Positions 2,356 to 52,931 of a stretch of DNA of 64,000 nt are shown piece after piece. Position numbers and translations under genes: made by a program. The DNA is from an uncultured delta proteobacterium (lineage in GTDB: Bacteria > Desulfobacterota > Binatia > UBA9968). Numbering within the stretch: the first letter of the stretch is position 1; each line of letters starts with the position of its first letter. The stretch is taken from the NCBI GenBank assembly GCA_963804165.1, contig CAWDPO010000008.1:1-64000 (forward strand), written 5' to 3'. The notes under the pieces were generated by a model, which was not told the DNA's origin, made no database searches, and saw only the letters and a list, made by a program, of their open reading frames with translations.

Positions 2356-2369
2356 CTAATCTTTCAAGC

Positions 2370-2404
2370 CTTGAACTTTTGAACGCTTGACTCGTTGAAC
2401 GAAC
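2370..2404. repeat. Short TTGAAC-core tandem repeat, intergenic
   Basis: cttgaacttttgaacgcttgactcgttgaacgaac; same core at 8921 and 20346-20474. Confidence 0.5.
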
Positions 2405-2715
2405 TATTCTTTCAGCGTCTCCGCCGCTTCGACATCGATAGTGTGGAAGAGTTGGAAGATCGCCAGGACGATAGCCAACCCCACCGCCGCCTCGGCAGCG
2501 GCGAGCATGATCACAAAAATAGCGTAGATTTGTCCGTCGGCATTGCCGCTGCTGAAATGAGAAAACGCCACGTAATTGATATTAGCGCTGTTGAGGATCA
2601 ACTCGACGCCCATCAGCACGCTGATGGCGTTACGCCGAGTCAAAACCGTGAACAATCCCAGAGAAAAAAGAATCGCGCCAATGATCAGATACGAAGAGAG
2701 GTCGTTGGGCGACAT
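2404..2715 (-). CDS. nuoK: NADH-quinone oxidoreductase subunit K
   Basis: 103 aa; RRNAISVLMGVELILN and AAAEAAVGLAI motifs. Confidence 0.96.
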   Translation of the reverse strand: MSPNDLSSYLIIGAILFSLGLFTVLTRRNAISVLMGVELILNSANINYVAFSHFSSGNADGQIYAIFVIMLAAAEAAVGLAIVLAIFQLFHTIDVEAAETLKE

Positions 2716-2717
2716 GG

Positions 2718-3218
2718 CTACTCTTTAATTTCCTTGCGCGACAGCACGACGGCGCCGATCAACGCGCCGAGCAAAACCAACGATGCCAACTCGAACGGAA
2801 GTAAATAGCTATACAAGAACAAGTCGCCGATCGTCGCCGTCGTCGCCGTGTGCACCACCTCTTTGGCTTTAACCCACGGAGTTACTCTAACGGTCTCGAT
2901 CAGGAGATAGACGAGGACGCCAATAATGATCAACGCGGGAATTCTCCCGGCGGCGCGGTTGGTCACCTCGACGTCGGTGATGCGATGGGTCAGCATGACG
3001 GCGAACAGAATCAAAACGAGAATGCCGCCGACGTAAATCAAGACCTGTACCGCCGCCACGAAGTCGGCGCCGAGGAAAATATAAATGCCGGCGACGCCCA
3101 TGAACGTCCCGAGTAACGAGAACGCCGAATAGATAATGTTTCTGGAAAACGCCACCATCGCGGCGGAACCCACCGTAATGAGAGCGATTAGATAGAAAAC
3201 CGCCGTCGATACCGTCAT
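2718..3218 (-). CDS. nuoJ: NADH-quinone oxidoreductase subunit J
   Basis: QVLIYVGGILVLILF and YLLPFELASLVLL motifs. Confidence 0.96.
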   Translation of the reverse strand: MTVSTAVFYLIALITVGSAAMVAFSRNIIYSAFSLLGTFMGVAGIYIFLGADFVAAVQVLIYVGGILVLILFAVMLTHRITDVEVTNRAAGRIPALIIIGVLVYLLIETVRVTPWVKAKEVVHTATTATIGDLFLYSYLLPFELASLVLLGALIGAVVLSRKEIKE

Positions 3219-3336
3219 AGCTTTTCGAACTGTTGGGATCTCGGAAAATTGAAGACGTTCTGGCTCAAATACCGGAAGATCCGATTCGGATCAAGGGGCT
3301 GGTTCTCTAATGCAGCTCGCCACCCCGTTCCCCCGC

Positions 3337-3894
3337 CTATCCCTCCTCGGCTGCGCCCCCTCCATCTGGCGTCGCGAACTCATCAAGATACTTTTGTCCG
3401 ATATCGACTTTAGTCACCAGTTTCGGATCTGTTTCCCCGCCTTTTTTCGGCTTATACAAATTCTGCGGCTGTGGCGCGAAGTGCCGTACCAGCCCTGCCG
3501 GATTGTAACTCGCCCCTTCGAATTCTTGAGAATGACGAATGGCCCCGGTCGGGCAGGCCTCGGAACAGAGGCCGCAGTACATGCACTTGCACACGTCGAT
3601 ATCAAAGTGAGTAAATTGGCGCACCTTGGTTTCTTTGTTCATCTCGATGCCGATCGTAATGCAGGTGATCGGACAGTCTCTTTCGCAAGCCAGGCAGCCC
3701 GTGCAAATATCCATATCGACTTCGAGGATGCCCCGGTAGCGGAGCGGCAAGGTTTGCTGGATCGGCACCGGAATTTTGTCCGGATATTGAATCGTCATCG
3801 GCCGGCGCACCAGGTGCGAAAACGTGATCGACATCCCTTCGAAGGTCGAGCTGATCGCCTGCCAGATATCCTTTCCGTAGCTTACGACATTCAT
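3337..3894 (-). CDS. nuoI: NADH-quinone oxidoreductase subunit I (2x4Fe-4S)
   Basis: CTGCLACERDCP and CMYCGLCSEACP ferredoxin motifs; TIQYP. Confidence 0.95.
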   Translation of the reverse strand: MNVVSYGKDIWQAISSTFEGMSITFSHLVRRPMTIQYPDKIPVPIQQTLPLRYRGILEVDMDICTGCLACERDCPITCITIGIEMNKETKVRQFTHFDIDVCKCMYCGLCSEACPTGAIRHSQEFEGASYNPAGLVRHFAPQPQNLYKPKKGGETDPKLVTKVDIGQKYLDEFATPDGGGAAEEG

Positions 3895-3907
3895 AAATCC
3901 TCAGCCG

Positions 3908-5104
3908 CTAAATTTGCGGTTTAAAATAAAGTTCCGGCTTCGCGCTGCGCACTTGAAATACCACGCGCCTGAAAAAATTGATGATCGTGGCAAGCGCAAA
4001 GCCCAACGTCAGGGCGCCAACGATGCGGCGCACATCGGCCGGCACGAACATGAAACCGATGGTGCCCAGCAAACAGATAAACGACAGCGGCACCATGTAT
4101 TTCCAACACAGCGCCATCAATTGGTCGACGCGCACCCGCGGCAGCGTGGCGCGCACCCACATGGCGACGAACACCCACAAATAAGCCTTTAAGAAAAACG
4201 TCACGAACTGAACGACACCCAAAAGTGCAGGGTGGTTGTCGAAGATGGCGAGCGGGGGAACTTGCCAGCCGCCCAGGAACAGTGTCGTGGCGACGGCGCC
4301 GATGACGTAGAGATTGCCCCACTCGGCGAAAAAGAAAAACAAAAAGCGCATGCCGCTGTATTCCGTAACATAGCCGGCGACGAGCTCCGACTCAGCTTCG
4401 GGAATATCGAATGGAGTGCGATTACCTTCGGCCAGCGCCGCCGTGAAATAAAGAAAGAATGCGGCAAAAGTGAAAGGGTTGTTGAACAGAAACCAGTCCC
4501 AAGGACCCCAGCCTTGGGCCTTTATGATGCCTTGCATGCTCATCGTGCCGGCGAGGAAAACAATGTTGAGCAATGCCAGACCCGCAGGGATCTCGTAGCT
4601 CACGATTTGCGCGGCCGAGCGCATGCCGCCAAGAAGCGACCACTTATTGTTCGACGCCCAGCCGGCCATGAGAATGCCGACTACGACCAGCGACGTGACG
4701 GCCAAAATGTAAAGAATACCGATGTTAAGATCCGCTACGATAAGATCTCCGCCGAAAGGGATCACGACAAAAGTGCAGAGAAAACCCATGAAAACGACGT
4801 AAGGAGCGAACGAGAAAAGCTTGGCGTCCGCCGCCGCCGGAATCAAATCCTCTTTGAGCAAGTTTTTAATGCCGTCGGCAAGCCATTGCAGAATGCCCTG
4901 CGGTCCGACCCGGTTCGGCCCAACGCGCGATTGCATGCGCGCCCACACGCGGCGTTCGAGCCAGCTCGTTACGCCGGCAAGAGGCGCCACAAACACGGAA
5001 AGCACGATCAACGCGGTGAGAACCATCGCGATGGCGTACACGACTTCTTTGGGTACGCCCGCAAAAGCGCCGTCTTGAATGAGCTGGTCAATAAAGGCTT
5101 GCAT
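3908..5104 (-). CDS. nuoH: NADH-quinone oxidoreductase subunit H
   Basis: ERR...RVGPNRVGP and NRTPFDIPEAESELVAGY motifs. Confidence 0.97.
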   Translation of the reverse strand: MQAFIDQLIQDGAFAGVPKEVVYAIAMVLTALIVLSVFVAPLAGVTSWLERRVWARMQSRVGPNRVGPQGILQWLADGIKNLLKEDLIPAAADAKLFSFAPYVVFMGFLCTFVVIPFGGDLIVADLNIGILYILAVTSLVVVGILMAGWASNNKWSLLGGMRSAAQIVSYEIPAGLALLNIVFLAGTMSMQGIIKAQGWGPWDWFLFNNPFTFAAFFLYFTAALAEGNRTPFDIPEAESELVAGYVTEYSGMRFLFFFFAEWGNLYVIGAVATTLFLGGWQVPPLAIFDNHPALLGVVQFVTFFLKAYLWVFVAMWVRATLPRVRVDQLMALCWKYMVPLSFICLLGTIGFMFVPADVRRIVGALTLGFALATIINFFRRVVFQVRSAKPELYFKPQI

Positions 5105-5125
5105 GATGGATTTGCGATTGCGCGC

Positions 5126-6266
5126 TTAGCGGTCGATCTCCGGAGCATCGACGTCGAGGCTGCCGATGAGCGCGATCAGATCGGCGAGCATGATTCCTTT
5201 GCTGATTTTGTCGATGATGCTCATTGCGGTATACGAGCCGGTACGAATTCTGACGCGATAAGGATACTCGCTGCCGTCGCTCACCACGTAAAAACCCATG
5301 TCGCCGCGCGGCGCTTCGACGCGCGCGTAGTATTCGCCCGCCGGCGGGCGAAATTTCTTTGGCACTTTGGAGATGGCCGGACCCTTTCGGCATCATCGCG
5401 AGACACTGGTGCAAAATTTTGCAGCTCTCTTGCATCTCGCGGATACGCACCCAGTAACGATCATAACTGTCGCCCAACGCGCCGACTTGCGCGGTGCCGA
5501 CAGGCACTTCAAAATCCAATTCTGGATAAATCGAATAAGGAATATCGCGCCGGATATCCCATTTTATGCCGGAGCCGCGCAGATTGGGTCCGACGAGATT
5601 GTACGAGAAAGCGTCTTCTTTGCTCACCACGGCCACTCCCGCGAGGCGCTCGATAAAAATCTTGTTGCCGGAAAGCAATCTGTTGAACTCATCGACGATC
5701 GGTTCGAAGTGATCTAAGAATGCGCCGATCCGGGTGCACGTTTCGGGAAAAATGTCGTAGCCGACGCCGCCGATGCGGATGTAATTGTAGGTTAATCGCG
5801 CGCCGCAGATCTCTTCCATCAAGTTGTTGATGGTCTCGCGCTCTCTCAGGGCGTGGACGAACGGCGTCATGGCGCCGATATCCTGACCGAATGTGCCGAC
5901 GGAGATCAGATGGCTGGCAATGCGGTTGAGCTCGCACGCGATCACCCGGCAAAATTCGCCGCGCCGCGTCACTTCCGTTCCCGCCAACTTTTCCGCGGCC
6001 AAGCAGAAAGCCTGGTTGGCGAACATGGCGGCCAGATAGTCGGCCCGATCGGTGTAAGGCACGTAACCGTGGTAGGTCACTTTCTCGCCGATTTTTTCGA
6101 TGGAACGGTGCAGATAGCCGACGTCTGGAATCGCTTCGCTGATCACCTCGCCGTCGGTTTTGACCACAAAGCGCAATACGCCGTGGGTGCTGGGATGCTG
6201 CGGTCCCACGCTGATGGTCATGTCTTCGGTATAGAAACCGCCCGATGCTTGTGCCGTTTCGCTCAT
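5126..6266 (-). CDS. nuoD: NADH-quinone oxidoreductase subunit D (one frameshift near 5382, probably a sequencing indel)
   Basis: [12 protein letters not shown] and GYLHRSIEK in one frame; C-terminal VEAPRGDMG...[12 protein letters not shown] in ORF 5126..5365; removing one G from AAAGGGTCC joins them. Confidence 0.93.
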
Positions 6267-6273
6267 AATGATT

Positions 6274-6779
6274 CTACCGCAGCAGTTTTTCGACCAGCGG
6301 CGCGCGCTGAGTGCTGATACCGTCGTATTCTTCCTGTTCGACGTAGTCTTTGCGCAGCGGATATCCAACCCAATCTTCCGGCAGCATGATTCGTCTCAAA
6401 TCGCTGTGCCCCTCGAAGATGACGCCGAACAGGTCGTAAACCTCGCGCTCGAACCAGTTCGCCACCTTCCAGACATTTTCTACGGTGGCGATCTTGGGAT
6501 TGTCCCGCGGCAAATCGACTTTGAGAACGATCTGATGGTTATGCGTATAGGAAAAAAGATGGTAAACGATTTGAATCTTTTCCTCTTTGGGCCAATCGAG
6601 CGCGGTCAAATCGGACAGCACTTCAAATCGATAACCCGGCGCATTGTGCAAGAAGCGGCAGACCTCGACGATCGCCGCGGCTCTACGCTCAAACAGGGAT
6701 CGAACACATCGGCCTTTAAATCGCCGACTTTTCCGGGGAACAGCTTTTCCAGCGAGGAGTAGATTTCCTTGGCGTCCAT
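6274..6779 (-). CDS. nuoC: NADH-quinone oxidoreductase subunit C (frameshift near 6678)
   Basis: ANWFEREVYDLFG...GHSDLRRIMLPEDWVGYPLRKDY; N-terminus MDAKEIYSSLEK starts at 6779 in another frame. Confidence 0.9.
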
Positions 6780-6814
6780 CTTCTTATTCTTGTCTTAAGC
6801 TCTCGGCCGGAGCC

Positions 6815-7312
6815 TCATCGCCGCGGTCGCGACGGTTTAACCAGCCAGCGCTCGCGCATCATTTTGTCTTGAATTCGCAGCAGTCCCTCAGTGAGCGCCT
6901 CGGGACGCGGTGGACAGCCGGGAACGTAAACATCGACGGGGACAATTTTATCGACACCTTTACAGACCGAATAAGCCAGTTGGAACAGCCCGCCGCAATT
7001 CGAACAGCTACCCATCGAAATCACATACTTCGGATCGGGCATCTGGTCATACAGCAGCTTGGTCCGCTTCGCCATCTTATAAGTAAGCGTGCCGGCGACG
7101 ATCATCAAATCCGACTGCCGAGGCGTAGCCCGGGGCACCGCTCCGAAGCGATCGAGATCGGCTCGAGGCCCGCCGGTCTGCATCAGCTCGATGGCGCAGC
7201 AGGCTAGACCGAACAGCATATACCACTGCGAGGAGGCACGGCCCCAGTTCAAAATATCGTCTACTTTTGTCGTGAAAACGGTTTCGGGTAGCGAGTTTAT
7301 CAGCGGTTTCAT
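6815..7312 (-). CDS. nuoB: NADH-quinone oxidoreductase subunit B
   Basis: [14 protein letters not shown] and [13 protein letters not shown] motifs. Confidence 0.97.
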
Positions 7313-7331
7313 CGCGTCTCTCCTATTCGCA

Positions 7332-7718
7332 TCAGGCCTTGATGTTCTTCACCCATTCTAAATCACCTTTGACCCAAGCGTAAACCAAGCCAAGAAAGAG
7401 AATGCCGACGAATATCAGAACCTCGACCAGCGCGAAGACGCCCGCTCCGCCCTCGACCCAGCGACGAAACACCGTGGCGACCGGGAAAATAAAGGCGATT
7501 TCAACCTCAAAGATAATAAAAATTAATGCCACAATGTAAAATCTGATGTTAAAATTCACCCAGGCGCTACCCATTGCCGGTTCGCCGCACTCGTAGGTCG
7601 ACAATTTTCGGGGTTGGGGATTGGACGGCCGGAGCAGTTTCCCAATCAGCAGATTAACCCCGACAAACCCAAGTCCTAATGCCGTAAACACTAGGACATT
7701 AGCAAAATCAAATAACAT
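7332..7718 (-). CDS. nuoA: NADH-quinone oxidoreductase subunit A
   Basis: KLSTYECGE and [14 protein letters not shown] motifs. Confidence 0.96.
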
Positions 7719-8962: not shown

Positions 8963-10174
8963 ATGAGAATCGAAACCGAGCGAAAAATGCGTCGCTGGCG
9001 CGAGCAGCGCTGGATCCTGGACCAGGTGATTCAAACCCGCGGCATCGACTGGGACCAGGGACGGACCGGAAAAATTCTCCGCAACTGCGGCCCGGCAGTC
9101 CAAGCGGATCTCCAGGAAGTTTGCCGGCGCATTCAAAAATTCGTCGATATCCCTCGCGAATTCTCCCGCGCTGCGGCGCGCCGCGAAGGTCAAGGCGGCG
9201 AAGCCGAATCTGCCGGGCACCTTGCCGAAGCGCGCGAGCATTACTACATCGCCGCCTGTTTCTACACCAACGCGATGTGGGCGATTTACGAAGACGGCAA
9301 TCCCGAGCGCATCCGTTGGCAGGAGAGGAAACGCGCTTGCTATGACAAGTTTATTCAATATGCCGGCCGCCCGATCGAGCGCGTCGAGCTGCCCTACAAC
9401 GGAAAAAAGATTCAAGCCATCTTGCATCTTCCTCCCGGGAGAAAAGCCAACGAGAAAGTTCCATGCGTCATGTACATTCCCGGTATGGACGGCGTCAAAG
9501 AAGACAACCCCGCGACCGGTGATCCATTTCTAGAGCGCGGCTTTGCAGTGCTCGCCATCGACGGTCCCGGGCAAGGCGAGACCCGGGAAGGCGGCATCAC
9601 CTGCACCGCGGCGAATTACGCCGATGCCGGCAAACTCGCTTGCGAGTACTTGGTTAAAAGGCCGGAGATCGATGCCGAGCGACTCGGCGTCATGGGTTCG
9701 AGCATGGGCTCCTACTGGGCACCGCGCGTGGTCGCTGAAGAAAAGCGGTTTAAAGCCTGTGCCGTGAGCGGCGTCTGCATGGAACCGGGTCAATACGCGA
9801 TCTTCAACATGTCGTCGCCGACCTTTAAGCTGAACTATATGTACATGTCGGGATACGATGACGAAGCCGCCTTCGACGAATTCACCAGAACGCTGTCTTT
9901 GCGCGGCGTCACGGCAAAAATCACCTGTCCTTACATGGTCGTCGCCGGCGAGGACGATGAGCACTGCGATATGAAATTTGTCTACGAGCTGATGGGCGAG
10001 ATTCCCGCGCCCAAACTGCTCTACGTCTTCGAAGGCGAGCGCCACTCGATTCGCAACCCCCGCTCCCGTTCGCTCGTGGTGAACTGGCTGATCGACACGT
10101 TGCTCGGCAAACCGTTCAAGTCGGAAATCGTCCGCGTCGAAACCAGCGGCAAGGAAGTCCGTCGGGATTGGTAG
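8963..10174 (+). CDS. Alpha/beta hydrolase (FrsA/2,6-dihydroxy-pseudo-oxynicotine hydrolase-like)
   Basis: IPGMDGVKE, IDGPGQGE, nucleophile elbow GSSMG, catalytic D/H candidates (GEDD, GERH). Confidence 0.85.
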   Translation: MRIETERKMRRWREQRWILDQVIQTRGIDWDQGRTGKILRNCGPAVQADLQEVCRRIQKFVDIPREFSRAAARREGQGGEAESAGHLAEAREHYYIAACFYTNAMWAIYEDGNPERIRWQERKRACYDKFIQYAGRPIERVELPYNGKKIQAILHLPPGRKANEKVPCVMYIPGMDGVKEDNPATGDPFLERGFAVLAIDGPGQGETREGGITCTAANYADAGKLACEYLVKRPEIDAERLGVMGSSMGSYWAPRVVAEEKRFKACAVSGVCMEPGQYAIFNMSSPTFKLNYMYMSGYDDEAAFDEFTRTLSLRGVTAKITCPYMVVAGEDDEHCDMKFVYELMGEIPAPKLLYVFEGERHSIRNPRSRSLVVNWLIDTLLGKPFKSEIVRVETSGKEVRRDW

Positions 10175-10176
10175 GT

Positions 10177-10240
10177 TCCGTGATCGTGACTCGTGTTCGT
10201 TTTCTCACGATCACGTTTCACGAGCACGAACGCGACACGA
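10177..10240. repeat. Intergenic TCGTG/CACGA inverted short-repeat array
   Basis: cgtgatcgtgactcgtg...cacgatcacg...cacgagcacga forms an imperfect hairpin. Confidence 0.45.
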
Positions 10241-10252
10241 TTAGTGAAACGG

Positions 10253-11416
10253 ATGCGGATAGCTTACGGAGATCTCATCGGTGGGATCAGCGGCGACATG
10301 TTCGTGGCCGCGCTTCTCGATCTCGGCCTGTCGTTCAGAAAGCTCCAATCCGATTTAAAAAAAATCCCGACTCTCAAGTTCAAACTGAATGCAAGAAAGA
10401 AAACCGTCCATTCGATCCGCGCCACCCAATTTCAGGTCATCTGCACGAAAAACGAACCACCGCGATCGTGGAAACAAATCCGCGAGCTGATCAAGCGCAG
10501 CCAACTCGGTGTCGATATCAAAACCAGTGGCATCGAAATTTTTACTCGCTTGGCTGAAGCGGAAGCCAAGATCCACGGCGTGGCCCCCGACAAGGTTCAC
10601 TTCCACGAAGTCGGCGCCACGGATTCCATCGTCGATATTATGGCGGCGGCGATCGGTGTCCATGAACTCGGCATCGAATCTTTCAGTTTTTCACGGATTC
10701 CGTTGGGGCGCGGCATCACCCGTTCCATGCACGGCCCTCTCCCCGTGCCCGGTCCTGCTACCCTTGAACTTCTCAAGGGACTCCCGGTGTTCGGCATCGA
10801 TGTCGAAGCTGAAACGGTAACCCCCACCGGAGCCGCGATCATGCGCGCACTGGGAAAAACTTTCGGCGCTCAGCCGGGCATGTCCGTGGAAATCATCGGC
10901 TACGGCACCGGCCAGAAGGAATTTACCAACCGTCCGAACCTGTTTCGCCTAATTCTCGGCGAGTCAGATTTATCCTCTCAAACAGAAGAAATGATTGTGA
11001 TCGAAACCAACATCGACGACATGAACCCGCAGTTTTTCGACTACGTCATGGACCGTTTGTTCGCTGCCGGCGCGCGCGACGTTTTTCTGGCGCCGATTCA
11101 GATGAAAAAAAATCGCCCCGCAACCCTGCTTAGCGCCATCGCCGAGCCGCGCGATCGAGAAAAGCTTGCCAAAATTATTTTTCAAGAGACTTCGACCATC
11201 GGGATCCGCTGCTATCCCGTGACGCGGATGATCTTGAAACGAGCATCAACGAAGGTAAAAACTCGCTTTGGCGATGTGGCGGTCAAAATCGTTGAGTTGC
11301 CGGACGGAAGCAGGAGAGCGGCGCCGGAATACGACGATCTCAAACGCATCGCGACTGCAAAGAAGCTGCCCGTCAAACTGATCCACGATGAAGTCATGCG
11401 CGTCGCCGGCAAATAG
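10253..11416 (+). CDS. larC: Nickel-pincer cofactor nickel insertase LarC
   Basis: MRIAYGDLIGGISGDM, VHFHEVGATDSIVDI, HGPLPVPGPAT, ETNIDDMNP, MKKNRP. Confidence 0.93.
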   Translation: MRIAYGDLIGGISGDMFVAALLDLGLSFRKLQSDLKKIPTLKFKLNARKKTVHSIRATQFQVICTKNEPPRSWKQIRELIKRSQLGVDIKTSGIEIFTRLAEAEAKIHGVAPDKVHFHEVGATDSIVDIMAAAIGVHELGIESFSFSRIPLGRGITRSMHGPLPVPGPATLELLKGLPVFGIDVEAETVTPTGAAIMRALGKTFGAQPGMSVEIIGYGTGQKEFTNRPNLFRLILGESDLSSQTEEMIVIETNIDDMNPQFFDYVMDRLFAAGARDVFLAPIQMKKNRPATLLSAIAEPRDREKLAKIIFQETSTIGIRCYPVTRMILKRASTKVKTRFGDVAVKIVELPDGSRRAAPEYDDLKRIATAKKLPVKLIHDEVMRVAGK

Positions 11417-11437
11417 CGTCTCCTAGACCAATCAAAA

Positions 11438-12715
11438 ATGTCCGACGATCCTGCCGGCAACGACAAGATGCACGCGCCGCTTAAACCCTGGGCGTCGCTT
11501 CTTTATCGGGACTATAGTTTTTTATTTTTGCTGTCGCTCTTCGCCACCACGGCGCAGCAGATGCGGCTGACGCAAAATCTCTATCAGGTCTACGAACTGT
11601 CCGGATCAGCGTTTCTATTGGGGCTTACCGGTCTGGCTCAGGGAGTGCCGATATTTGCCCTAGGATTATTTGGCGGCATATTGGCGGATTTCCTCGATCG
11701 CAAAACAATACTCCTGATCACGATCTTCGGCAATCTCCTCGTTGCCATCACGCTCGGGATCTTGACGCTCGCTCAAGTAATTCAGGTCTGGCATATCCTG
11801 GCCGGCACGGCGCTCACTTCAGCGCTCAACATCGTCCTAAATCCAACAAGAATGGCGCTCATATCGCATCTCGTGCCGCGTTCGCATTTGACCAACGCCG
11901 TGGCGCTGAACTCCAGCGTATCTCAAGGATCCCATTTCATCGGACCTATGTTGGGAGGTCTGAGCCTGGCGTGGATGAGTACGGGCAACGCCTACCTGTT
12001 CAATGCGTTGTTCTACTTCCCCGCCACCCTCGCCGTCGTGCTGCTCAGAACTCCCGCATTCGACAAGTTGTCGAGAGAGATATTTACCTCGGCGAGTTTT
12101 TTAGGCGGCGTCAAATTTCTTTTCTCCGAGCCGATTATTCTCACTCTGGTGTTGCTCGATTTCATCGTCGTCGGCTTCGGTTATTACCGGCCGCTGCTGC
12201 CGATCTTTGCCAAAGACATTCTTTTTGTTGGCCCCGCCGGCTTCGGGATGCTCTCATCCGCTCCAGCGATCGGCGGCGTTATCGGCACTGCCACGCTCCT
12301 GACGATCGGCGATGTGAAACGCAAAGGGCTTCTCGCTCTGTGCTCTTTTCTCACCTATGCGTTGGCACTTGGCGTTTTCGCGCTCTCAACAAGCTTCTGG
12401 ATGTCGCTCCTCTTACTCGGTGTCATGGGACTGACCAATTCCCTTCAGGCTGTCATGCGCCAAACCAGTTTTCATCTTTTGACCCCTGATCACGTGCGCG
12501 GCCGCGCCTTCTCAGTTTTTAATATGTTCTCTCAAGGCGCAAATTCTGTCGGCGCCACCGAGGTCGGATTCATGGCCGCGCTGCTCGGTGCGCCGGGCTC
12601 GCTCCTGTTCGGCTGCGCCGTCGGTGCGGGACTGACATTGGGGTGTTGGGTGTCAATACCGGGGTTACGAAAATTTGGCGAAGATGGAGTAGCAGCGTTC
12701 AAGCGAACACGCTAA
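11438..12715 (+). CDS. MFS transporter (EntS/MFS_3-like)
   Basis: About 12 hydrophobic segments; GILADFLDRK motif A. Confidence 0.88.
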   Translation: MSDDPAGNDKMHAPLKPWASLLYRDYSFLFLLSLFATTAQQMRLTQNLYQVYELSGSAFLLGLTGLAQGVPIFALGLFGGILADFLDRKTILLITIFGNLLVAITLGILTLAQVIQVWHILAGTALTSALNIVLNPTRMALISHLVPRSHLTNAVALNSSVSQGSHFIGPMLGGLSLAWMSTGNAYLFNALFYFPATLAVVLLRTPAFDKLSREIFTSASFLGGVKFLFSEPIILTLVLLDFIVVGFGYYRPLLPIFAKDILFVGPAGFGMLSSAPAIGGVIGTATLLTIGDVKRKGLLALCSFLTYALALGVFALSTSFWMSLLLLGVMGLTNSLQAVMRQTSFHLLTPDHVRGRAFSVFNMFSQGANSVGATEVGFMAALLGAPGSLLFGCAVGAGLTLGCWVSIPGLRKFGEDGVAAFKRTR

Positions 12716-25082: not shown

Positions 25083-25168
25083 GCCGGAGTGGTGGAATGG
25101 CAGACGCGCCGGACTCAAAATCCGGTAGGGGTAACCCTGTGGGGGTTCAAGTCCCCCCTCCGGCACCA
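25083..25168 (+). tRNA. tRNA-Leu(CAA)
   Basis: GCCGGAG acceptor, D-loop TGGCA, anticodon arm CCGGA-CTCAAAA-TCCGG, long variable arm, GGTTCAAGTCC T-arm, 3' CCA. Confidence 0.96.
25114..25168 (+). repeat. attL core (3' part of tRNA from the anticodon loop)
   Basis: ctcaaaatccggtaggggtaaccctgtgggggttcaagtcccccctccggcacca, identical at 52877. Confidence 0.93.
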
Positions 25169-25225
25169 ATAAAAATAGTCACTTAGCAATCATACCCGCC
25201 AGTATCACCCGTTCCGTTTAGCCGG

Positions 25226-25248
25226 CTTTAACTAAACTTTAACTAAAC
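25226..25248 (+). repeat. Putative integrase arm-type sites (CTTTAACTAAA x2)
   Basis: Same tandem at 52751-52772; variant at 37157. Confidence 0.65.
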
Positions 25249-25468
25249 GGTTTTCCTTAACTCCTTTGCCTGGTCTATCGGTACGACTTTGGCGTTCTCT
25301 CTCTGAACCAAAATACGCTCCGATGTTTTTCTTGCCGCTTCTTTGAGGTCTTCCTCATCGACGATGTCATAGCGGTCAAAAACGCTTCGCGTTTTATGTC
25401 CAGAGATCGTCATGGCCACCCGCTCATGAACACCTGCCCTCACCATGTCTCTAACAGCCGTTCGCCGA
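25243..25468 (-). pseudogene. Tyrosine integrase C-terminal remnant
   Basis: [33 protein letters not shown] (box II R, GH, catalytic Y); everything upstream is missing. Confidence 0.88.
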
Positions 25469-25850
25469 CGACCTCTTGTCCTCCGATGCGGTCATCGTCG
25501 GTTCGCCGGTATATGTCGGCAACATGTCGGGGCAGGTCAAGACATTCTTTGACAACTGGGGGCGCAAGTTCGATCTCGGAACCGCAACCGGTAAGATGCG
25601 CAACAAGGTCGGAGCGGCGTTTGCGACTGGCGGGGGTGTCTCCAGCGGTAAGGAAGTCACGATGCTTACCATCCTCGGCGCTATGCTCATCCATCAGATG
25701 ATTGTCATCAGCGGCGGAGGATTCGGTGCGAGCGCGACCACTGGCCCTGACTCGCCGGGCATTGACGCGAAGGAGATCGCAGAAGCTCGCGACCTGGGCA
25801 AGCGCGTTGCGGAAGTCGCCGCTCTTGTTAAACGGGGAGCGAGCAAATAA
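25464..25850 (+). pseudogene. Flavodoxin/WrbA-like protein, 5'-truncated
   Basis: [23 protein letters not shown]...KVGAAFATGG; N-terminal S-x-T-G-N-T loop absent. Confidence 0.75.
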
Positions 25851-25861
25851 CGCTGATGTAG

Positions 25862-26398
25862 AGGCTAGAGGTACTTAAGGATGCGGTTCCCAAGCTCGCC
25901 CGAGTTGGGCTTCTGCGACCGCCGCAAAACGTCGCCATTTCGGACGAACTTCAAATCAAAGAAATTCGCATTGCGGCTATGGCACTGAAGCTAAAATTGG
26001 AGGAGGTAGAGACTAAACTAGATTCAAAAAATTTAGAGAGTGCGTTTCAACGCGTCAAGCAAAAGGAAGTGGGCGCAATTATGACGGTATCTCGCCCCTT
26101 TTTTGCTGAACGAAAACGCTTCGTCGAGCTTGCGAGCAAATACCGATTACCGTCAATCTATCAGCAGAAGGAGTATGTCGATGAAGGCGGTCTCATGTAC
26201 TACGGGCCGGACTACATTGATCTCTATCGGCACGCGGCTGTTTACGTGGACAAGATCTTGAAGGGTGCCAAACCGGCTGATTTGCCGGTGCAGCAGGCAA
26301 CGAAGTTTGAGTTTGTGATCAATCTCAAGACCGCCAAGCAAATCGGTCTGACGATTCCGCCCAACGTGCTGGCTAGAGCGGATAAAGTGATTCGATGA
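25862..26398 (+). pseudogene. ABC_sub_bind-type solute-binding protein, 5'-truncated
   Basis: RLEVLKDAVPKL...YVDKILKGAKPADLPVQQATKFEFVINLKTAKQIGLTIPPNVLARADKVI; no N-terminal half. Confidence 0.8.
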
Positions 26399-26420
26399 TG
26401 CCGGGGAAACAAACTGCGTT

Positions 26421-26526
26421 GCTAGGTTTGAACTGAATTCTCCTTCTGCTTAATCCCGCCAGATTTCATTGAAGCGTCGTTCAGTTCAATTTCAGGCTAA
26501 ACTTGGCCTTGCCATTTGATGAATAC
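26421..26526. repeat. Hairpin repeat copy A (TTGAACTGAA...TTCAGTTCAA plus conserved tail)
   Basis: Inverted arms at 26428-26437 and 26480-26489; tail shared with copy D. Confidence 0.75.
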
Positions 26527-26670: not shown

Positions 26671-27324
26671 TCATTTTCGTTCTGGGCTTGGCCGTTGCGC
26701 TTTCGTGGGTACGGCTGCAATGCGATGGAATATCCCAAAGACGTTCCGTCGTGCGCTCACGATCCGCAAACCCGCACTGTTGGCAAGTTCCAACGGTTCG
26801 CGATTCCAGTGACAGGCAGACGGTTTCGCAAAGCTGTCTGCATGACGATCCTGCCACCGACCAAGCCATCCGCGATCACTTCGACCGTGTTCCAACAAAA
26901 GAATTTGACCTGCCGGCTTGGTAACACGGGCCATCTCTCGAAGGGCGGTCGTAGGATTGGGGAACGTGCATGTGCTCAGAGATGAAGCAACAGTATCGAA
27001 GCATTCGTCAGGAAAAGGCAGCGCTTCTGCATCCGCTAGAGCGAACCGAATCTTGATATTCAATTTGGCTGCGCGTTCTCGCGCTATCTTCAGCATTTCA
27101 CTGCTGAGTTCTGCCCCAAAGATTTCGCAGCCGGTGTGGTAATACTGAAGATTCTTGCCCGTCCCGATAGCAACCTCAAGAACTTTGCCTGAAGCCTGAG
27201 AAAGAACTGATTGCCGGAGCTTTCCCAGGCCTAAAAAGCCTAATACCGTCTCTATAACGTCGTACCAAGGCGCGAACCGGTTGTATTTAGCGGCTATCTC
27301 TCGGGTGGCAAATTCCACCGACAT
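26671..27324 (-). CDS. Class I SAM-dependent methyltransferase (PmtA/UbiE-like)
   Basis: VLEVAIGTG, ADAEALPFPDECFD, LCTF-like STCTFP, LLEH. Confidence 0.88.
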   Translation of the reverse strand: MSVEFATREIAAKYNRFAPWYDVIETVLGFLGLGKLRQSVLSQASGKVLEVAIGTGKNLQYYHTGCEIFGAELSSEMLKIARERAAKLNIKIRFALADAEALPFPDECFDTVASSLSTCTFPNPTTALREMARVTKPAGQILLLEHGRSDRGWLGRWQDRHADSFAKPSACHWNREPLELANSAGLRIVSARRNVFGIFHRIAAVPTKAQRPSPERK

Positions 27325-27359
27325 GAAACATGAAGGCCGGGGGGAGCTATACCGCGTAG

Positions 27360-27617
27360 CTATTTCGTCGGCCCATCGTTCTTCGGCTGTGAGGCATTTC
27401 CCATCATCTGACTGCACATATCCATCATTTTGGACATCCGGGCCATTATGTCCTTCATGTCGCTCATCATCCTGTGCGATGGATCGCCCATCATTCCGCT
27501 CATACCTCGCATCATGCCGCCCATCGCTGAACCTTTCGGCTTGTCTTCAGCTTGGTATGCGCCTACTACCGTCGCAACAAGCAAACCTAACAACATTCCC
27601 GTGATAATCTTCTTCAT
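27360..27617 (-). CDS. Small exported Met-rich protein (possible Cu/Ag-binding)
   Basis: Signal peptide followed by MGGMMRGMSGMM...MMSDMKDIMARMSKMMDMCSQMM. Confidence 0.7.
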   Translation of the reverse strand: MKKIITGMLLGLLVATVVGAYQAEDKPKGSAMGGMMRGMSGMMGDPSHRMMSDMKDIMARMSKMMDMCSQMMGNASQPKNDGPTK

Positions 27618-27627
27618 ATGGTTAACC

Positions 27628-28111
27628 TCACTTCCGGACTTGCCAAAACTCTTTGAAATTGTCAGGAACCGGTGGCGTGGGAGTGGGTGGTCCTTTCTTG
27701 CCGTGCGTTTTCTCGATGTATGTTCTAATGTCTTTTAGTCGTCTGCCGTCGTCCATCAGCTTCATCACGTCACGCGTGATGTCTATGCAAATTTGTCAGC
27801 CAACGCTCATAGGATCAAACTCCGGTTTTTCCACCGGGGATTTGTCCTTCACGTAGCACGAAGCGTTACTTGTATGTCCAACCGAATCCCAGCAGCCACA
27901 GTAACAAGGAATATATTTGAGGACGTCCCGATTTTAGGACCGCGAAACGATAAGCATCACGCGTTTCGACAGGACCGTTTCTGACCTGCTCCGGCAGGAT
28001 TGAAGTTGGTGCCAGTTTGTAGACGTATTGCGCCGCCCCAAATGCAGAACCTGGAACGGATAAACTAGCCGCTATACCGACGCCCGTAATAAGAAAATCT
28101 CGCCTGTTCAT
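27628..28111 (-). CDS. PCYCGC-motif protein with Tat signal, candidate selenoprotein (UQIC); one frameshift near 27932
   Basis: MNRRDFL signal; after removing one A from CTAAAATCGG it reads NRDVLKYIPCYCGCWDSVGHTSNASCYV...FDPMSVG(TGA)QICIDITRDV...GPPTPTP...VRK-stop. Confidence 0.82.
27763..27781 (-). promoter_or_regulatory. Putative bacterial SECIS hairpin
   Basis: mRNA CAUCACG-CGUGA-CGUGAUG, a 7-bp perfect stem starting 15 nt after the in-frame UGA (27798-27796), with GU in the loop. Confidence 0.68.
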
Positions 28112-28146
28112 GGACTTTAATCTAACAGGCTCGGAAAGTCCGTCAA
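28112..28146 (-). promoter_or_regulatory. Putative sigma70 promoter with overlapping inverted repeat
   Basis: TTGACG-16-TAGATT ending 7 nt before the ATG; GGACTTT-N16-AAAGTCC dyad. Confidence 0.4.
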
Positions 28147-28269
28147 GTCAAAAGAATCAACAAGACAAATAGCATCACGTAGTAAATTAGGGGCTGAGTC
28201 GAAATACGTAAAGGGCATAAGGCGGGTTACGCAAAAGCGTCAATGTTCCGTTCTCGTCCGCTCTGGACT

Positions 28270-28296: not shown

Positions 28297-28300
28297 GTTC

Positions 28301-28344
28301 TGCGACGCTAGGATTGAACTGAATTCTCCTTCAATTCAATCCTA
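28301..28344. repeat. Hairpin repeat copy B
   Basis: taggattgaactgaa-ttctcc-ttcaattcaatccta; left ~30 bp nearly identical to copy A. Confidence 0.72.
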
Positions 28345-28528: not shown

Positions 28529-29368
28529 ATGACTGGCAAAGGTGTTGAGAAGCGGGAAGAAAGCCTGCGAGTGTTCAGCCAGGCTGCCACAATCTATGAC
28601 CGGATCGGTCCACAAATTTTCTCTTATTTCGGTCAATGCTTGGTCGATCTTGCCGACCTGGATTCGGGCGATAAAGTGCTCGACGTAGCGGCTGGGAGAG
28701 GCGCGTTGTTGTTTCCAGCGGCCGCAAAGGTCGGACCGACTGGCCATGTTACCGCTATCGACTTTTCTCCGGACATGGTACGCGAAACAGCTAAAGACAT
28801 CGAGAGTCGAAAACTAAGCCACGCTGAAATCCGTCATATGGACGCTGAACAAATGAATCTACCGGATGCGCCGTTCGATTGGGTTATGTGCGGCTTTGCC
28901 CTTTGGATGTTCGCTGAACCCGCGTGCGTTCTCCAGGAGTTTTACCGTGTGCTCAGGCGCGGAGGGCGGGTAGCTCTCAGCACTTGGGCCGCTGATAATC
29001 CGTTTCAAACTTGGTGTAATGAGGTGCTTAGACCCTTTGTGTATTCGCCGGCGGCAAATGATTTGCCTGCCAAAATCGATGTTAGGTTTGACACGCCGTT
29101 ACAGATAGAAACCGCGTTACAACAAGCCGGTTTCGAACACATCCGCATTACCGTCGAAGAAAACGATTTTATCTATACATGTGAGGAGGAGTTTTGGTTG
29201 TCTCTCTGGTCGGCTGGAATACGGCGGCAATTGGAGAAAATGACACCGGAACTGCTCGAACAAGCAAAGAGTGAAGTGTTTAGAAAATTGCAGATGCTGA
29301 AACAGGAAGGTGGCTTTCATAAAGTGAGTCGCGCCTTATTTGCCGTCGGGACAAAGCCAGCGCAGTAA
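28529..29368 (+). CDS. Class I SAM-dependent methyltransferase
   Basis: VLDVAAGRG, IDFSPDMV, MDAEQM, RVLRRGGR. Confidence 0.88.
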   Translation: MTGKGVEKREESLRVFSQAATIYDRIGPQIFSYFGQCLVDLADLDSGDKVLDVAAGRGALLFPAAAKVGPTGHVTAIDFSPDMVRETAKDIESRKLSHAEIRHMDAEQMNLPDAPFDWVMCGFALWMFAEPACVLQEFYRVLRRGGRVALSTWAADNPFQTWCNEVLRPFVYSPAANDLPAKIDVRFDTPLQIETALQQAGFEHIRITVEENDFIYTCEEEFWLSLWSAGIRRQLEKMTPELLEQAKSEVFRKLQMLKQEGGFHKVSRALFAVGTKPAQ

Positions 29369-29401: not shown

Positions 29402-29433
29402 AATCGAACTGAAGCGTCGTTCAGTCCAATCCT
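29402..29433. repeat. Hairpin repeat copy C
   Basis: aatcgaactgaa-gcgtcg-ttcagtccaatcct; right arm matches copies A and D. Confidence 0.68.
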
Positions 29434-30187: not shown

Positions 30188-30311
30188 CCCGCGCACGCAG
30201 CCGGCGGGCCGCAGGTGCGCGTGACACCGCACGAGCGGCATCCTCTATGGAACGTAGGCTTGTGCGGCCGCGCGGCATGAGAGCCTACAGCTAATGCGCA
30301 AGATGTTAGCG
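30182..30311 (+). mobile_element. Integron attC site (solo)
   Basis: R'' ACCTAAC, L'' GCGCACGCAGC, central GGCCGCA/TGCGGCC, L' GCTAATGCGC, R' GTTAGCG; 130 bp. Confidence 0.78.
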
Positions 30312-30315
30312 GCAA

Positions 30316-30423
30316 GATTGAACTGAATTCTCTACGAACCAATCTTTCGTGAGATCAATCTGACGCGTCGTTCAGTTCAATCTCAGGCTAATTCTGGCCT
30401 TCCCACTCGACGAATACCTGTCG
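30316..30423. repeat. Hairpin repeat copy D
   Basis: 13-bp arms AGATTGAACTGAA / TTCAGTTCAATCT, then tail caggctaa..tggcctt.cca shared with copy A. Confidence 0.75.
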
Positions 30424-30727
30424 CCTTCGGTCGTAGATCTCAGTTTCCCTCTAATACTGCCCGCGTGATACACATGTGTTCAATGAGGAAAAGCTCGTGC
30501 CTTATCAATCCTGCTTGCAGTGGTGCTGCTTGCAGGTCTCCGGTGTGATCAGTTATTCCGCTGCGTTATAGGGAGCCCGACTATGGGTTTGCTTAAGGAC
30601 TTCGAAAGTCGCTTTATGGTCGGAATAATGGCTGCCAATTCTGAACAGATCTATTATAATTAAAGGCCGACGTCAGAAATCTTGAAAGGAGTGTCGCCAC
30701 AAGGTAGCCCGTTGGAGACAGCGCGCA

Positions 30728-37156: not shown

Positions 37157-37196
37157 GCTTTAACTAAAGTTTAGCTAACCTGCCAGAATCAACCGC
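37157..37196 (+). repeat. Internal copy of att-arm-like sequence
   Basis: gctttaactaaagtttagctaa followed by ctgccagaatcaaccg (compare ccgccagtatcacccg at 25196). Confidence 0.5.
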
Positions 37197-37420: not shown

Positions 37421-37553
37421 GTAGCTCCTGCGGGTCGGGGGAAGCTATGCGCCCTCCGCGACGTTTCTTCCGCAAGTTCTCGCGGCATTTCGAAAGAGAT
37501 ATCCGACCGTCCAGCTCAATTTAAAAACACACGATAGCGCCACACTAGAGCGA

Positions 37554-38042
37554 ATGCTGCTAGAATCGGAATTGGATGTCGCGTTACTCAACCATCGTCC
37601 GAAATCCGCTGCCCTTGCTTCAGAGCCCTATAGTCTTGAGAAGCTTGTGCTTTTTACCCAAGCAAATCACGCACTGGCAAAGATAAGACGGTTAAGCTTG
37701 CGCGAATTAGCCCGTGCTCCACTAATCATCAGGGAGGGCACGGGATCACCAACTTTAAGCGAGCGCATGTTGAGGGAAGCAGATTCAGAATTACGGCCAA
37801 ACATCGTGCTTCGTTGTGAATCACCAGCTGCCGTTAAGGCAGCGGTTAGAAATAATATGGGCATCGGTCTGCTGTTTCTCAGCAGTGTGGAAGCAGACTT
37901 TCATAGTGGCAGATTCAAACGACTTAGGCTTATCGATGCAGACCTAGATGTTCACACTTTTATCGTCCATCGGAGCGAATCATTAGCGCCCATCGTCTCC
38001 AGTTTTTTAAGCATTCTCCGTCAAAGACGCGATAGGCGTTAA
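37554..38042 (+). pseudogene. LysR substrate-binding domain fragment (no HTH)
   Basis: ELDVAL, PLIIREG, AVKAAVRNNMGIG. Confidence 0.75.
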
Positions 38043-48723: not shown

Positions 48724-49130
48724 TTAAACGACGGCAAGAACCTCAGCCATAAATTGGCAGTCTGGTTTAGCATCGAAAAGATAAAGATCCGCCCACATTG
48801 TATGCCGAGCCGGACGGTGATTTTCATCGGGAAACATTTTAAGCCAAGGTCTATTTAAAGCATCGTGAGCCTCGCGATGGCGCTCTTTTCTAATGAATAC
48901 TCGCAAGAAAACGATATTTTCAGGGCCGCCACCCGCCTGTTCCAAGAAATTGGTAATGTTTTTAAAGAGCAACTCGGCCTGTTCCTCGAGATTGGCCGGA
49001 AATGTTTCGTATCAAAGTTCATTCCCCAAAGACTTGAGGAGTGTACGACATTTCCTACCTTAGCTCCCATCGGAATTGGGTTCGCTCGCGCTCCGACCCC
49101 AGGTAAATATATAGAGTTCACTCGTGCCAT
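48724..49130 (-). CDS. Rid family protein (frameshift near 48995)
   Basis: ANPIPMGAKVGN...FKNITNFLEQAGG...WLKMFPDENHRPARH. Confidence 0.78.
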
Positions 49131-49456
49131 AAAAGTATCCTTTCCTATTTACGGTTTTTAACTGAGCGACGCGGCGATCTATATCACGACGAAACGGTAT
49201 CATGTCAACACCGAAAAACAGTCAAGATCAGAGAGTTAGCTGCGCCTTCCGTCTCCGCAAGCGATTTAGATTGTTCAACAACACTGGTCGCCAAAGATGT
49301 ACAGTCCTGCGCAAAACATGGTTAGAATTCTCACAGTTGGCCTAAATTACATTGACAGACTGCGAATTGCGGAATTAATATCCAGTGCTCGTAAACACCA
49401 GTAACGTTAAAGGCGGATTCGTAACACTGCATTGACGAGAGGAAACGGATTCCAAC

Positions 49457-50254
49457 ATGCAGCGGCAAACCTTCTTTAGGTCGCCAGAGAATTATCCGGA
49501 TTTGACTCCTGCGGCCGCTAGAATTGGTGATTTTCTTTTTTCTTCGGATATTTTTGGATGGGACGATTCGCAAAAACAAATTCCGCACGAGCCGCTAATT
49601 CAGGCGGAGGCGCTATTCCAAAATATAGAAGAGCTGTTACAAAAAGCCGGTGGTTCATTGGAAGATATTGCTTACATGATGGTATGCACCAGAAAGGACC
49701 GACACCGAGAAGCGCTTCCTGCGTTCAATCAGCCATGGCTGAAGCCTTCCAGACCCAAATCAGAGACCAGCACGCCACGCCTTTCAAGAAGACGCGTTTC
49801 CCTTAGAGGCAATGCTGTTAAGAGTCAACTTGATCGCGGTCCTCGGGACTGACAAACGAGAAACGATTCACTTCGAAGACCTGAGCCACACCAACCCAAT
49901 TCCAATGGGTGCACGACGCGGTAAATTTGTATTTTCATCAACAATTTTTGGGGCTTCATCGGGAACTGATTCCGAAAGCAAATCTATCCGAAGGATCCGA
50001 TTGAGCAGGCGGAGATCATGTTTCAAAATATCAGAAATTTCTTGGATCAGATCGATGGCACGCCAGATGATATAGTACGGCTTAGACTCTTCATCCGGCG
50101 CGGCCAAGAGCAGGACGTCTTGCTCAAGGCAATTGATCAGGAATGGGTAAAGATGTTTCCGAATGAAATGGATAGACCTGCCCGACCATGTACTCAGGAA
50201 GATTTCGTTCCTGGCGGCATGCTATTTCGTGCCGAAATAATAGCCGTGCGCTAA
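49457..50254 (+). CDS. Tandem two-domain Rid protein (two frameshifts)
   Basis: Domain 1 ...PDPNQRPARH runs in frame into domain 2 HTNPIPMGARRG...EWVKMFPNEMDRPAR. Confidence 0.72.
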
Positions 50255-52260: not shown

Positions 52261-52712
52261 TTATTCCCGCCTAACTCCATGCGCCCTCACATACCGCTCA
52301 AAAAACCTGTTTCTAAGTACACTTGGCCGCATCTCTCTCGCCCGACGGATTGCTTCGGCGGGGTCGCAGCCAGTCAAATTAATAATCGATAGAATCGCGA
52401 TCAGTGCCGACCTATTACAGCCTTGATTGCAATGAATCATCACACTGTTACCGCTATTCACTTCCGCCACTACGGTTTGCACCAGCCTCTTCACCTCGTG
52501 TTCAGCGACGCAAGAATTATCCCGCAAAGCAGCGTGGCAGTAGGTTATCCCGGCAGCGTCCGCCGCTTCGACAAACGTAGTGTCGCTGGTGGAAGCAACG
52601 TTCAATACAAGCTTTACGTTCCTTTTTGCAGCTCGTTGATTAGCCGCTCAGTTGATATGTACTTGGTGTGTCGGCGGATATAAATGTTCTCATGAAGTCG
52701 TAGGATCATCAC
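52261..52712 (-). CDS. Dual-specificity/tyrosine protein phosphatase (frameshift near 52625)
   Basis: HCNQGCNRS CX5R motif; N-terminal part upstream with GAGGAG RBS. Confidence 0.8.
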
Positions 52713-52750
52713 GTTTCCGTCTCCTCGTTCTGGGAAATTATTTTTAATCG

Positions 52751-52772
52751 CTTTAACTAAACTTTAACTTAA
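52751..52772 (+). repeat. Putative integrase arm-type sites near attR
   Basis: ctttaactaaactttaacttaa. Confidence 0.65.
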
Positions 52773-52876
52773 TCAGGGGCGTACACCCGCAACCAATCAG
52801 CAATTGCAGTCGCGTAAACTTAACGATATAGCGGGGTAGTGGCGGGTAGGTTTTGCTAGGTAAATATTTATACGGT

Positions 52877-52931
52877 CTCAAAATCCGGTAGGGGTAACCC
52901 TGTGGGGGTTCAAGTCCCCCCTCCGGCACCA
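52877..52931 (+). repeat. attR core (duplicated 3' part of tRNA-Leu)
   Basis: 55-bp identity to 25114-25168; tRNA 5' half absent. Confidence 0.93.

Follow-up and report, generated by a model that had tools for sequence, protein, structure and literature searches.

A candidate Tat-exported selenoprotein of the PCYCGC family on a tRNA-Leu island of an uncultured Binatia bacterium

Does a TGA codon inside a small PCYCGC-family gene encode selenocysteine (Sec), and is the copy that raises this question still able to make its protein? The gene occupies positions 28111-27628, on the minus strand, of a 64,000-nt stretch (the window) of contig CAWDPO010000008.1, assigned to an uncultured delta proteobacterium of the Binatia (assembly GCA_963804165.1). 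An original prediction, drawn from the DNA alone, had proposed that the annotation breaks a gene for a selenoprotein exported by twin-arginine translocation (Tat), and that mobile DNA carries it. Comparison with relatives indicates that TGA 27798-27796 is very probably the Sec codon of a PF13798 family member, with the hairpin at 27781-27763 as its selenocysteine insertion sequence (SECIS) element. By its sequence, the locus is a member of the Sec-containing branch of the PCYCGC/CYCXC family (PF13798); that Sec is inserted in the source organism itself is something we infer. The window copy as sequenced, with one base too many, cannot make the full protein.

An in-frame TGA and a conserved hairpin

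The gene is composed of the following parts:
28111-27628, minus strand: entire (seleno)protein gene of the PCYCGC family, some 160 codons split between two frames by a 1-nt insertion (alignment with 28 relatives)
28111-28109, minus strand: start codon ATG, which opens the N-terminal frame
28111-28034, minus strand: predicted twin-arginine signal peptide (MNRRDFL, a hydrophobic stretch, then ...SAFG/AAQ), with a putative cleavage site
27935-27932, minus strand: run of four A, a +1 frame break with one base more than in relatives (DNA alignment with loci L001, L002, L004 and L007)
27909-27892, minus strand: PCYCGC motif, invariant in the alignments of relatives
27879-27856, minus strand: GHTSNASC motif with a conserved His and Cys (sequence and alignments of relatives)
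27798-27787, minus strand: Sec-x-x-Cys (UxxC) motif, made up of TGA 27798-27796 (predicted Sec), Gln, Ile and Cys 27789-27787
27781-27763, minus strand: SECIS-type hairpin, a 7-bp stem with a CGUGA loop, within the codons of (D)ITRDVM
27630-27628, minus strand: the gene's own stop codon, TGA

From the ATG, the N-terminal frame runs MNRRDFLITGVGIAASLSVPGSAFGAAQ...AYRFAVLK, after which family sequence is lost; its full reading is MNRRDFLITGVGIAASLSVPGSAFGAAQYVYKLAPTSILPEQVRNGPVETRDAYRFAVLK, which then departs from the PF13798 family. The family sequence resumes in the +1 frame from 27933 as NRDVLKYIPCYCGCWDSVGHTSNASCYVKDKSPVEKPEFDPMSVG-TGA-QICIDITRDVM...GPPTPTPPVPDNFKEFWQVRK, followed by the TGA stop. 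Between the internal and the final TGA, 55 codons remain in frame and read QICIDITRDVMKLMDDGRRLKDIRTYIEKTHGKKGPPTPTPPVPDNFKEFWQVRK. The Pfam model PF13798 (PCYCGC) aligns with this C-terminal frame without interruption at the internal TGA, covering profile positions 64-151 of 153 with a score of 79.4 bits (E 3.4e-22; cut-off 25 bits). The RRDFL signal, both Cys motifs, MSVG-TGA-QIC, the 55 codons and the GPPTPTP tail thus lie where the prediction had placed them.

To compare this codon with its counterparts, we scanned one genome per species, which gave 36 related loci (L001-L036), and searched two protein collections: 5.8 billion clustered proteins (76 matches, with 18 sequences inspected) and 1.84 billion representatives at 50% identity (1603 family members at E<=0.001, with the Sec column tabulated for the best 150). 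TGA stands at the Sec column in 35 of the 36 genomic loci, comprising 33 with full downstream sequence, L035, which is cut by a contig end, and L036, which has a frame break upstream. The sole Cys form among them is L034 (Caldilineaceae; codon TGT). By their titles, the TGA loci derive from Binatia, delta proteobacterium/Syntrophobacteraceae, Verrucomicrobiia/Udaeobacter, Pyrinomonadaceae/Acidoferrum, Eisenbacteria, Chloroflexia/Anaerolineae and Rokuibacteriota. Past the TGA, these loci continue in the same frame with xICIxITRDVM...GPPTPTPPVP.

Among the best 150 of the 1603 representatives, the column holds Cys in 131, and 13 end exactly before it; Gly (2), Trp (1), a gap (2) and an earlier end (1) account for the others. 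Judging by this tally, the PF13798 family is mostly Cys-containing with a Sec branch, and the prediction was right that the family carries a CxxC here. Two full-length database proteins, P0002 and P0003, likewise carry Cys at the column (GCSVCIGITRDVM and GCSICVDITRDVM) before continuing with ICIxITRDVM...GPPTPTPPVP. The in-frame TGA is thus aligned with Cys in homologues, as expected of a bacterial selenoprotein gene. The three representatives with Trp (P0145) or Gly (P0126 and P0175) have residues whose codons are one substitution from TGA; in P0145 and P0175, the two whose tails were compared, the second Cys of the pair is kept.

Coding sequence is also conserved beyond the TGA. Measured against L001, the closest relative, the ratio of nonsynonymous to synonymous substitution rates (dN/dS) of the window gene is 0.12 for the C-terminal frame and 0.21 both for the N-terminal part and for the stretch past the TGA, and variation in the 35 codons tabulated after the TGA falls mainly at third positions.

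The predicted perfect 7-bp stem was found at 27781-27763 and is formed by a 5' arm CAUCACG (27781-27775), a loop CGUGA (27774-27770) and a 3' arm CGUGAUG (27769-27763). It begins at the 15th nt past the TGA, leaving a 14-nt spacer and a UGA-to-loop distance of 21 nt. A recent review gives the bacterial SECIS (bSECIS) model as a loop of 3-9 nt with a G among its first two bases (mostly G[G|U]), a stem of 4-16 bp, a UGA-to-loop distance of 16-37 nt and a minimum free energy <= -7.5 kcal/mol (PMC13188914, Fig. 2 legend). Checked against these published limits, the hairpin falls within each, with a loop of 5 nt, a stem of 7 bp, a spacing of 21 nt and a consensus energy of -8.46 kcal/mol; the second loop position is G, and the next base is U in 30 sequences and G in 4, matching G[G|U].

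The hairpin is kept in all TGA sequences with enough downstream DNA (34/34; 33 loci and the window). Four stem pairs are invariant across these sequences. Of the other three, one is AU (33 sequences) or GU (1), another is CG (33) or a CC mismatch (1), and the outermost is CG (29), UG (2) or broken (3). The codons from +6 to +10, which form the hairpin, are nearly fixed as ATC (33/33), ACG (34/34), CGT (30) or CGG (4), GAC (33/33) and GTG (33/33), while the 17 remaining degenerate columns that are well conserved in the tabulated region use at least 2 codons each. By Fisher's exact test, calculated by hand, this difference (frozen columns 4/5 versus 0/17) has p ~7e-4. A constraint on the hairpin codons at the level of sequence is thereby shown, and the weight we give the hairpin comes from this comparison of synonymous sites among relatives rather than from single-sequence folding or covariation. 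The alignment of homologues that the prediction had called for bore out both the pairing of TGA with Cys and the conservation of the hairpin, and supports the reading of UGA as Sec.

Weighing the alternatives

Several results count against the Sec reading. The window copy is frameshifted, so this gene may be dead. The hairpin, folded as a single sequence, is no better than shuffled sequences (z -1.05; 32 of 200 shuffles fold as well), none of its 7 pairs shows compensatory base changes, and RNAalifold found neither an extended lower stem nor covariation. It overlaps the peptide ITRDVM, which the close Cys forms P0002 and P0003 also possess. Rfam has no match at the hairpin and, over the whole window at gathering thresholds, matches tRNA only; at E<=10, positions 27600-28150 gave just two chance matches to eukaryotic families. 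Lastly, a search that covered the window and the related loci found no selA, selB, selD or tRNA-Sec in the 64 kb of the window and no tRNA-Sec in the 36 loci.

The prediction had placed an extra A near 27932, and alignment with four relatives locates it to the A-run 27935-27932, where the window reads CCTAAAATCGG and L001 reads CCT-AAACCGA. Relatives read ...AYRFAVxNRDVL... in one frame across this site (35 of 36 loci; L035 has no sequence there). Removing the base does give the predicted protein of about 160 aa with the sequence described, but this correction is an assumption, since the frameshift itself may be genuine. Two readings are about equally likely: the copy was inactivated recently and is a pseudogene, on an island that is decaying and immobilised, or an assembly or sequencing error affects an intact, expressed selenoprotein gene. 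We give the pseudogene an even chance. Remnants of several genes are present on the island (an FMN_red fragment, an ABC_sub_bind fragment, a LysR-type open reading frame (ORF) without its helix-turn-helix (HTH) domain and, at best, an integrase remnant) as well as short RidA-like fragments, and the cation diffusion facilitator (CDF) partner gene found at other loci is missing here. The genes scanned with Pfam in a core part of the window of about 25 kb are full-size, which argues against pervasive indel errors, and in our judgement a change from A3 to A4 is a short homopolymer for a sequencing error. Against inactivation, dN/dS is 0.12-0.21 on either side of the break, no conserved residue has been lost, nor has the TGA or the hairpin, and homopolymers are the classic site of assembly indels.

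An error in the assembly, with an intact gene in the organism, is scarcely less probable. The break lies in a homopolymer, the rest of the gene is intact and bears signs of purifying selection, and the downstream Met-rich ORF keeps its coupled start; yet we noticed no other frameshift of the error type in the window, and the surrounding island is degraded. Frame breaks also occur in three of the 36 copies from metagenome-assembled genomes (MAGs): upstream of the TGA in L036 (10001-10330) and in the C-terminal part in L031 (3576-3842) and L006 (5169-5450). These reflect either frequent decay or MAG assembly errors; as they may equally be the latter, they count against the pseudogene.

The remaining alternatives fare much worse. 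The hairpin could be a by-product of a conserved ITRDVM peptide rather than a SECIS element, with Sec insertion, if any, directed by another signal. The absent covariation, the weak single-sequence z-score and the ITRDVM of P0002 and P0003 would all fit this. We nonetheless consider it improbable: synonymous variation is lost in the hairpin codons alone, the one loop base that varies is always U or G, in keeping with the bSECIS model, and the hexapeptide at this position is itself variable among the 131 Cys forms (R in 26, T in 74, V in 59, M in 52). In L034, the only Cys form whose DNA was examined, the hairpin is absent.

It is very unlikely that the TGA is an ordinary stop, such that the real product is the 104-aa N-terminal protein that gene callers annotate and the downstream sequence is untranslated. 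Public protein sets do contain dozens of entries of 100 to 130 aa: 72 of the 76 database matches span just the 42-44% of the query preceding the TGA, and 15 of the 18 inspected proteins stop exactly at ...MSVG/MSIG/MSLA, the residue preceding it. Against this, in-frame conservation extends over 45-55 codons past the TGA in many lineages, with mostly synonymous changes and a dN/dS of 0.21, and the Cys forms have homologous sequence as their C-terminal half.

A programmed +1 ribosomal frameshift at the break or a genome-wide reassignment of UGA, for which nothing speaks beyond the presence of the frame break and the in-frame TGA, is the least credible: programmed frameshifting was rejected because relatives read across the break site in a single frame (35/36 loci, as above), and against reassignment, TGA also terminates the window gene itself and 19 of 33 relatives, and the window's ORFs are normal under translation table 11.

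A mechanical scan for other TGA read-through in the window returned 46 candidates; those we looked at were neighbouring genes sharing a frame by chance.

The tRNA-Leu island and the neighbouring genes

The claim that the gene sits on mobile DNA is upheld by an island at tRNA-Leu with a 59-nt direct repeat at its two ends:
25083-25168, plus strand: tRNA-Leu(CAA), whose 3' 59 nt (25110-25168) are the left copy of the direct repeat
52873-52931, plus strand: right copy of this repeat, with one mismatch in 59 nt (98% identity)
25243-25491, minus strand: possible remnant of a tyrosine-recombinase C-terminus beside the tRNA, weak (82-aa stop-to-stop frame, PF00589 below threshold)

These repeats enclose 27.8 kb and duplicate the 3' end of the tRNA gene, as in tRNA-integrated islands, and parts of the island have a G+C content (0.465-0.511) below that of its flanks (0.53-0.57). 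The putative integrase remnant next to tRNA-Leu has no Pfam match at E<=0.01; its 82-aa frame aligns with positions 133-168 of the 172 in PF00589 at 13.5 bits (E 0.064), below the cut-off. The locus L001 is a second, different tRNA-linked island with the same module: over 9128-11799 it presents, in order, a CDF gene, the Sec gene, the Met-rich gene, then an intact Phage_integrase gene (tyrosine recombinase; E 5.1e-13) and tRNA-Met. The tRNA-Leu repeats together with this integrase and tRNA-Met context therefore support carriage on integrative elements. The island in the window looks old and immobile.

Two repeat families were observed on the island. The 23-nt repeat GCTTTAACTAAACTTTAACTAAA occurs in three copies (25225-25247, 37157-37179 and 52750-52772), just inside each island end and once mid-island; these may be recombinase arm sites or a sign of a composite island. 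A structured intergenic repeat with inverted arms GATTGAACTGAA and TTCAGTTCAATC occurs in four copies (26414-26526, 28300-28342, 29403-29431 and 30316-30417), one of which folds at -41.9 kcal/mol over 30300-30440 (z -2.52). Like the borders of a cassette, its copies flank the methyltransferase, Met-rich and selenoprotein module together with the two genes that follow, and it was found in the window only and in none of the 36 related loci.

Gene remnants lie at 25455-25850, 25862-26398, 37425-38042 and 48724-50254. They include an FMN_red fragment that starts at profile position 64, an ABC_sub_bind fragment that starts at position 121 and the LysR-type ORF lacking HTH; of the short ORFs at 48724-50254, the one that was scanned (49457-49852) has a weak RidA/L-PSP match. 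Just inside the right island end, a 114-aa ORF (52261-52605, minus strand) matches the dual-specificity phosphatase family PF00782 (E 4.3e-10) and, more weakly, PF22785 (polymorphic-toxin-associated phosphatase). About 190 nt outside the right repeat lies a gene for a 2431-aa non-ribosomal peptide synthetase with two modules and a thioesterase domain (53120-60415, minus strand). Left of tRNA-Leu is ordinary chromosomal backbone, with a nuo (NADH:quinone oxidoreductase) operon at 319-7718, then biotin-synthesis genes, radA and larC.

Three genes adjoin the selenoprotein gene directly:
27617-27360, minus strand: small exported Met-rich protein of 85 aa, whose start is 10 nt past the selenoprotein stop
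26671-27417, minus strand: S-adenosylmethionine-dependent methyltransferase (Methyltransf_11), in one blastp cluster with neighbours in 18 of 36 loci (the L004 example is Pfam-confirmed)
28529-29368, plus strand: second methyltransferase of the same cluster, divergent, on the other side of the gene

Because of this 10-nt distance, the Met-rich gene is probably co-transcribed with the selenoprotein gene. Its product has no Pfam match; a homologous ORF occupies the same position in L001, and DNA similarity to L001 and L002 extends through it. By blastp clustering, a methyltransferase neighbours the gene in 18 of 36 loci and in the window, and a CDF transporter of ~210 aa does so in 15 of 36. Neighbour examples checked with Pfam comprise Cation_efflux, a P-type ATPase with YHS and HMBD domains, two CusF-domain proteins, a CusB-like protein, an outer-membrane efflux protein (OEP), cytochromes c, an AhpC/TSA protein and an extracytoplasmic function (ECF) sigma factor. 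These conserved neighbours point to periplasmic metal or redox handling.

Export, known relatives and proposed role

The window sequence has the pattern of a Tat substrate, with a twin arginine, a hydrophobic region and a putative cleavage site, and the product is predicted to be exported by Tat. Of 28 full-length relatives, 26 carry the motif RRx[FL][LVC] and 12 a lipobox-like site (e.g. LAGC). Most of these 12 also have the twin arginine, which suggests that they are Tat-exported lipoproteins; the window copy has no lipobox Cys.

We modelled the L001 protein with AlphaFold2 and obtained a confident, helical structure (predicted local distance difference test 84.8; predicted template modelling (TM) score 0.77), in which the Sec position falls directly before helix 106-120. 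A CxxC just before a helix is the usual geometry of redox-active or metal-binding motifs. The best-shaped structural match was the periplasmic domain of CcmH (PDB 2hl7 and 2kw0), a helical CxxC thiol-disulfide oxidoreductase that is likewise a small helical periplasmic protein; this match is weak and not significant (TM normalised to target 0.57-0.59; E 3.0-5.4; probability 0.16-0.18) and is taken as a lead only.

In an intact copy, we propose that UGA 27798-27796 would be recoded as Sec by the SECIS hairpin starting 15 nt downstream, yielding a Tat-exported protein of ~160 aa with PCYCGC, a conserved His and Cys and UxxC at the start of a helix. Outside the cytoplasm, the product could form a selenol/thiol centre that binds soft metals or metalloids, or handles them by redox chemistry, beside metal efflux systems, and the module would travel on tRNA-targeting integrative islands. 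Such an extracytoplasmic metal or redox role, drawn entirely from the neighbouring genes, is possible and somewhat doubtful. What speaks against it, besides this dependence on gene neighbourhood, is that the window lacks the CDF gene that goes with the module in 15 loci, that Foldseek against the PDB returned 0 matches at E<=0.001 for the L001 model, and that a profile search of PDB sequences returned only insignificant ferredoxin and saposin matches (E >= 0.007). The prediction of an exported metal- or redox-active protein has thus gained the twin arginines of the relatives and the metal-efflux neighbourhoods, and its export and function stay at the level of proposals.

The prediction also suspected that related (seleno)protein families might already be catalogued, and this is the case. 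Table 1 of the 2026 review lists a CYCXC family (seleno)protein, "hypothetical protein OS_HP4", with PF13798 and the motif UxxC, and credits Zhang & Gladyshev 2007 (PMC13188914); the main text of the 2007 paper names OS_HP1-3 (PMC1976440). The full-text literature yielded nothing on selenium for PCYCGC and, for CYCXC or PF13798 with selenoprotein, just that review. The NCBIfam model of this family, NF041379, shares PF13798, UxxC with one Sec and a Cys-rich core with the window gene, and it is the only NCBIfam match for the window protein and its relatives. Scores stay far below its equivalog cut-off of 90 bits for full-length P0002 (56.9), for P0004 (41.8) and for the window's C-terminal frame (50.3, the window being scored in two pieces owing to the frameshift). 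The model has 90 positions, whereas proteins of this branch are ~150-160 aa long, with a twin-arginine leader (often with a lipobox as well), additional helical sequence at the N-terminus and a tail reading GPPTPTPPVP. Judging from the motif rather than from the model's own alignment, the Sec column would be the same in both. This kind of selenoprotein is therefore already known and in print, and the longer Tat-leader branch lies outside the curated NCBIfam model.

Compared with the Cys-containing PCYCGC proteins of PF13798, the branch shares the fold family, PCYCGC, the positions of His/Cys and CxxC, and export (as a lipoprotein or by a signal peptide). The Cys forms, which are the majority (131 of the best 150), differ in having Cys for Sec, a variable peptide after the CxxC and no frozen hairpin; one example is lipoprotein AOT13_14730 of Parageobacillus thermoglucosidasius (PMC13068155).

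Tat-exported selenoproteins such as periplasmic formate dehydrogenase also join a twin-arginine leader to SECIS-directed Sec, but they are large molybdoenzymes of known activity, unrelated in sequence and fold.

No known principle is changed by this locus, as Sec forms of the family had been published. For annotation, public protein sets systematically end the proteins of this branch at the Sec codon (72 of 76 matches; 13 of the best 150 representatives), and a model for it would correct many MAG annotations. The hairpin offers an example of a SECIS inside a coding region that freezes codons and peptide alike. With still more reserve than for the metal or redox role itself, we suggest that these proteins form a distinct clade of Tat-exported, often lipidated UxxC selenoproteins, widespread in environmental MAGs, below the NCBIfam cut-off and, in the public entries inspected, annotated as truncated proteins of roughly 100-160 aa, which may serve as the extracytoplasmic selenol partner of CDF/Cus/P1B efflux modules and spread on tRNA islands, and in which the SECIS would have frozen both its RNA and the peptide ITRDVM. 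An exported UxxC selenoprotein encoded beside CDF, Cus and P-type-ATPase genes is a testable, island-borne candidate for selenium-dependent metal handling outside the cytoplasm.

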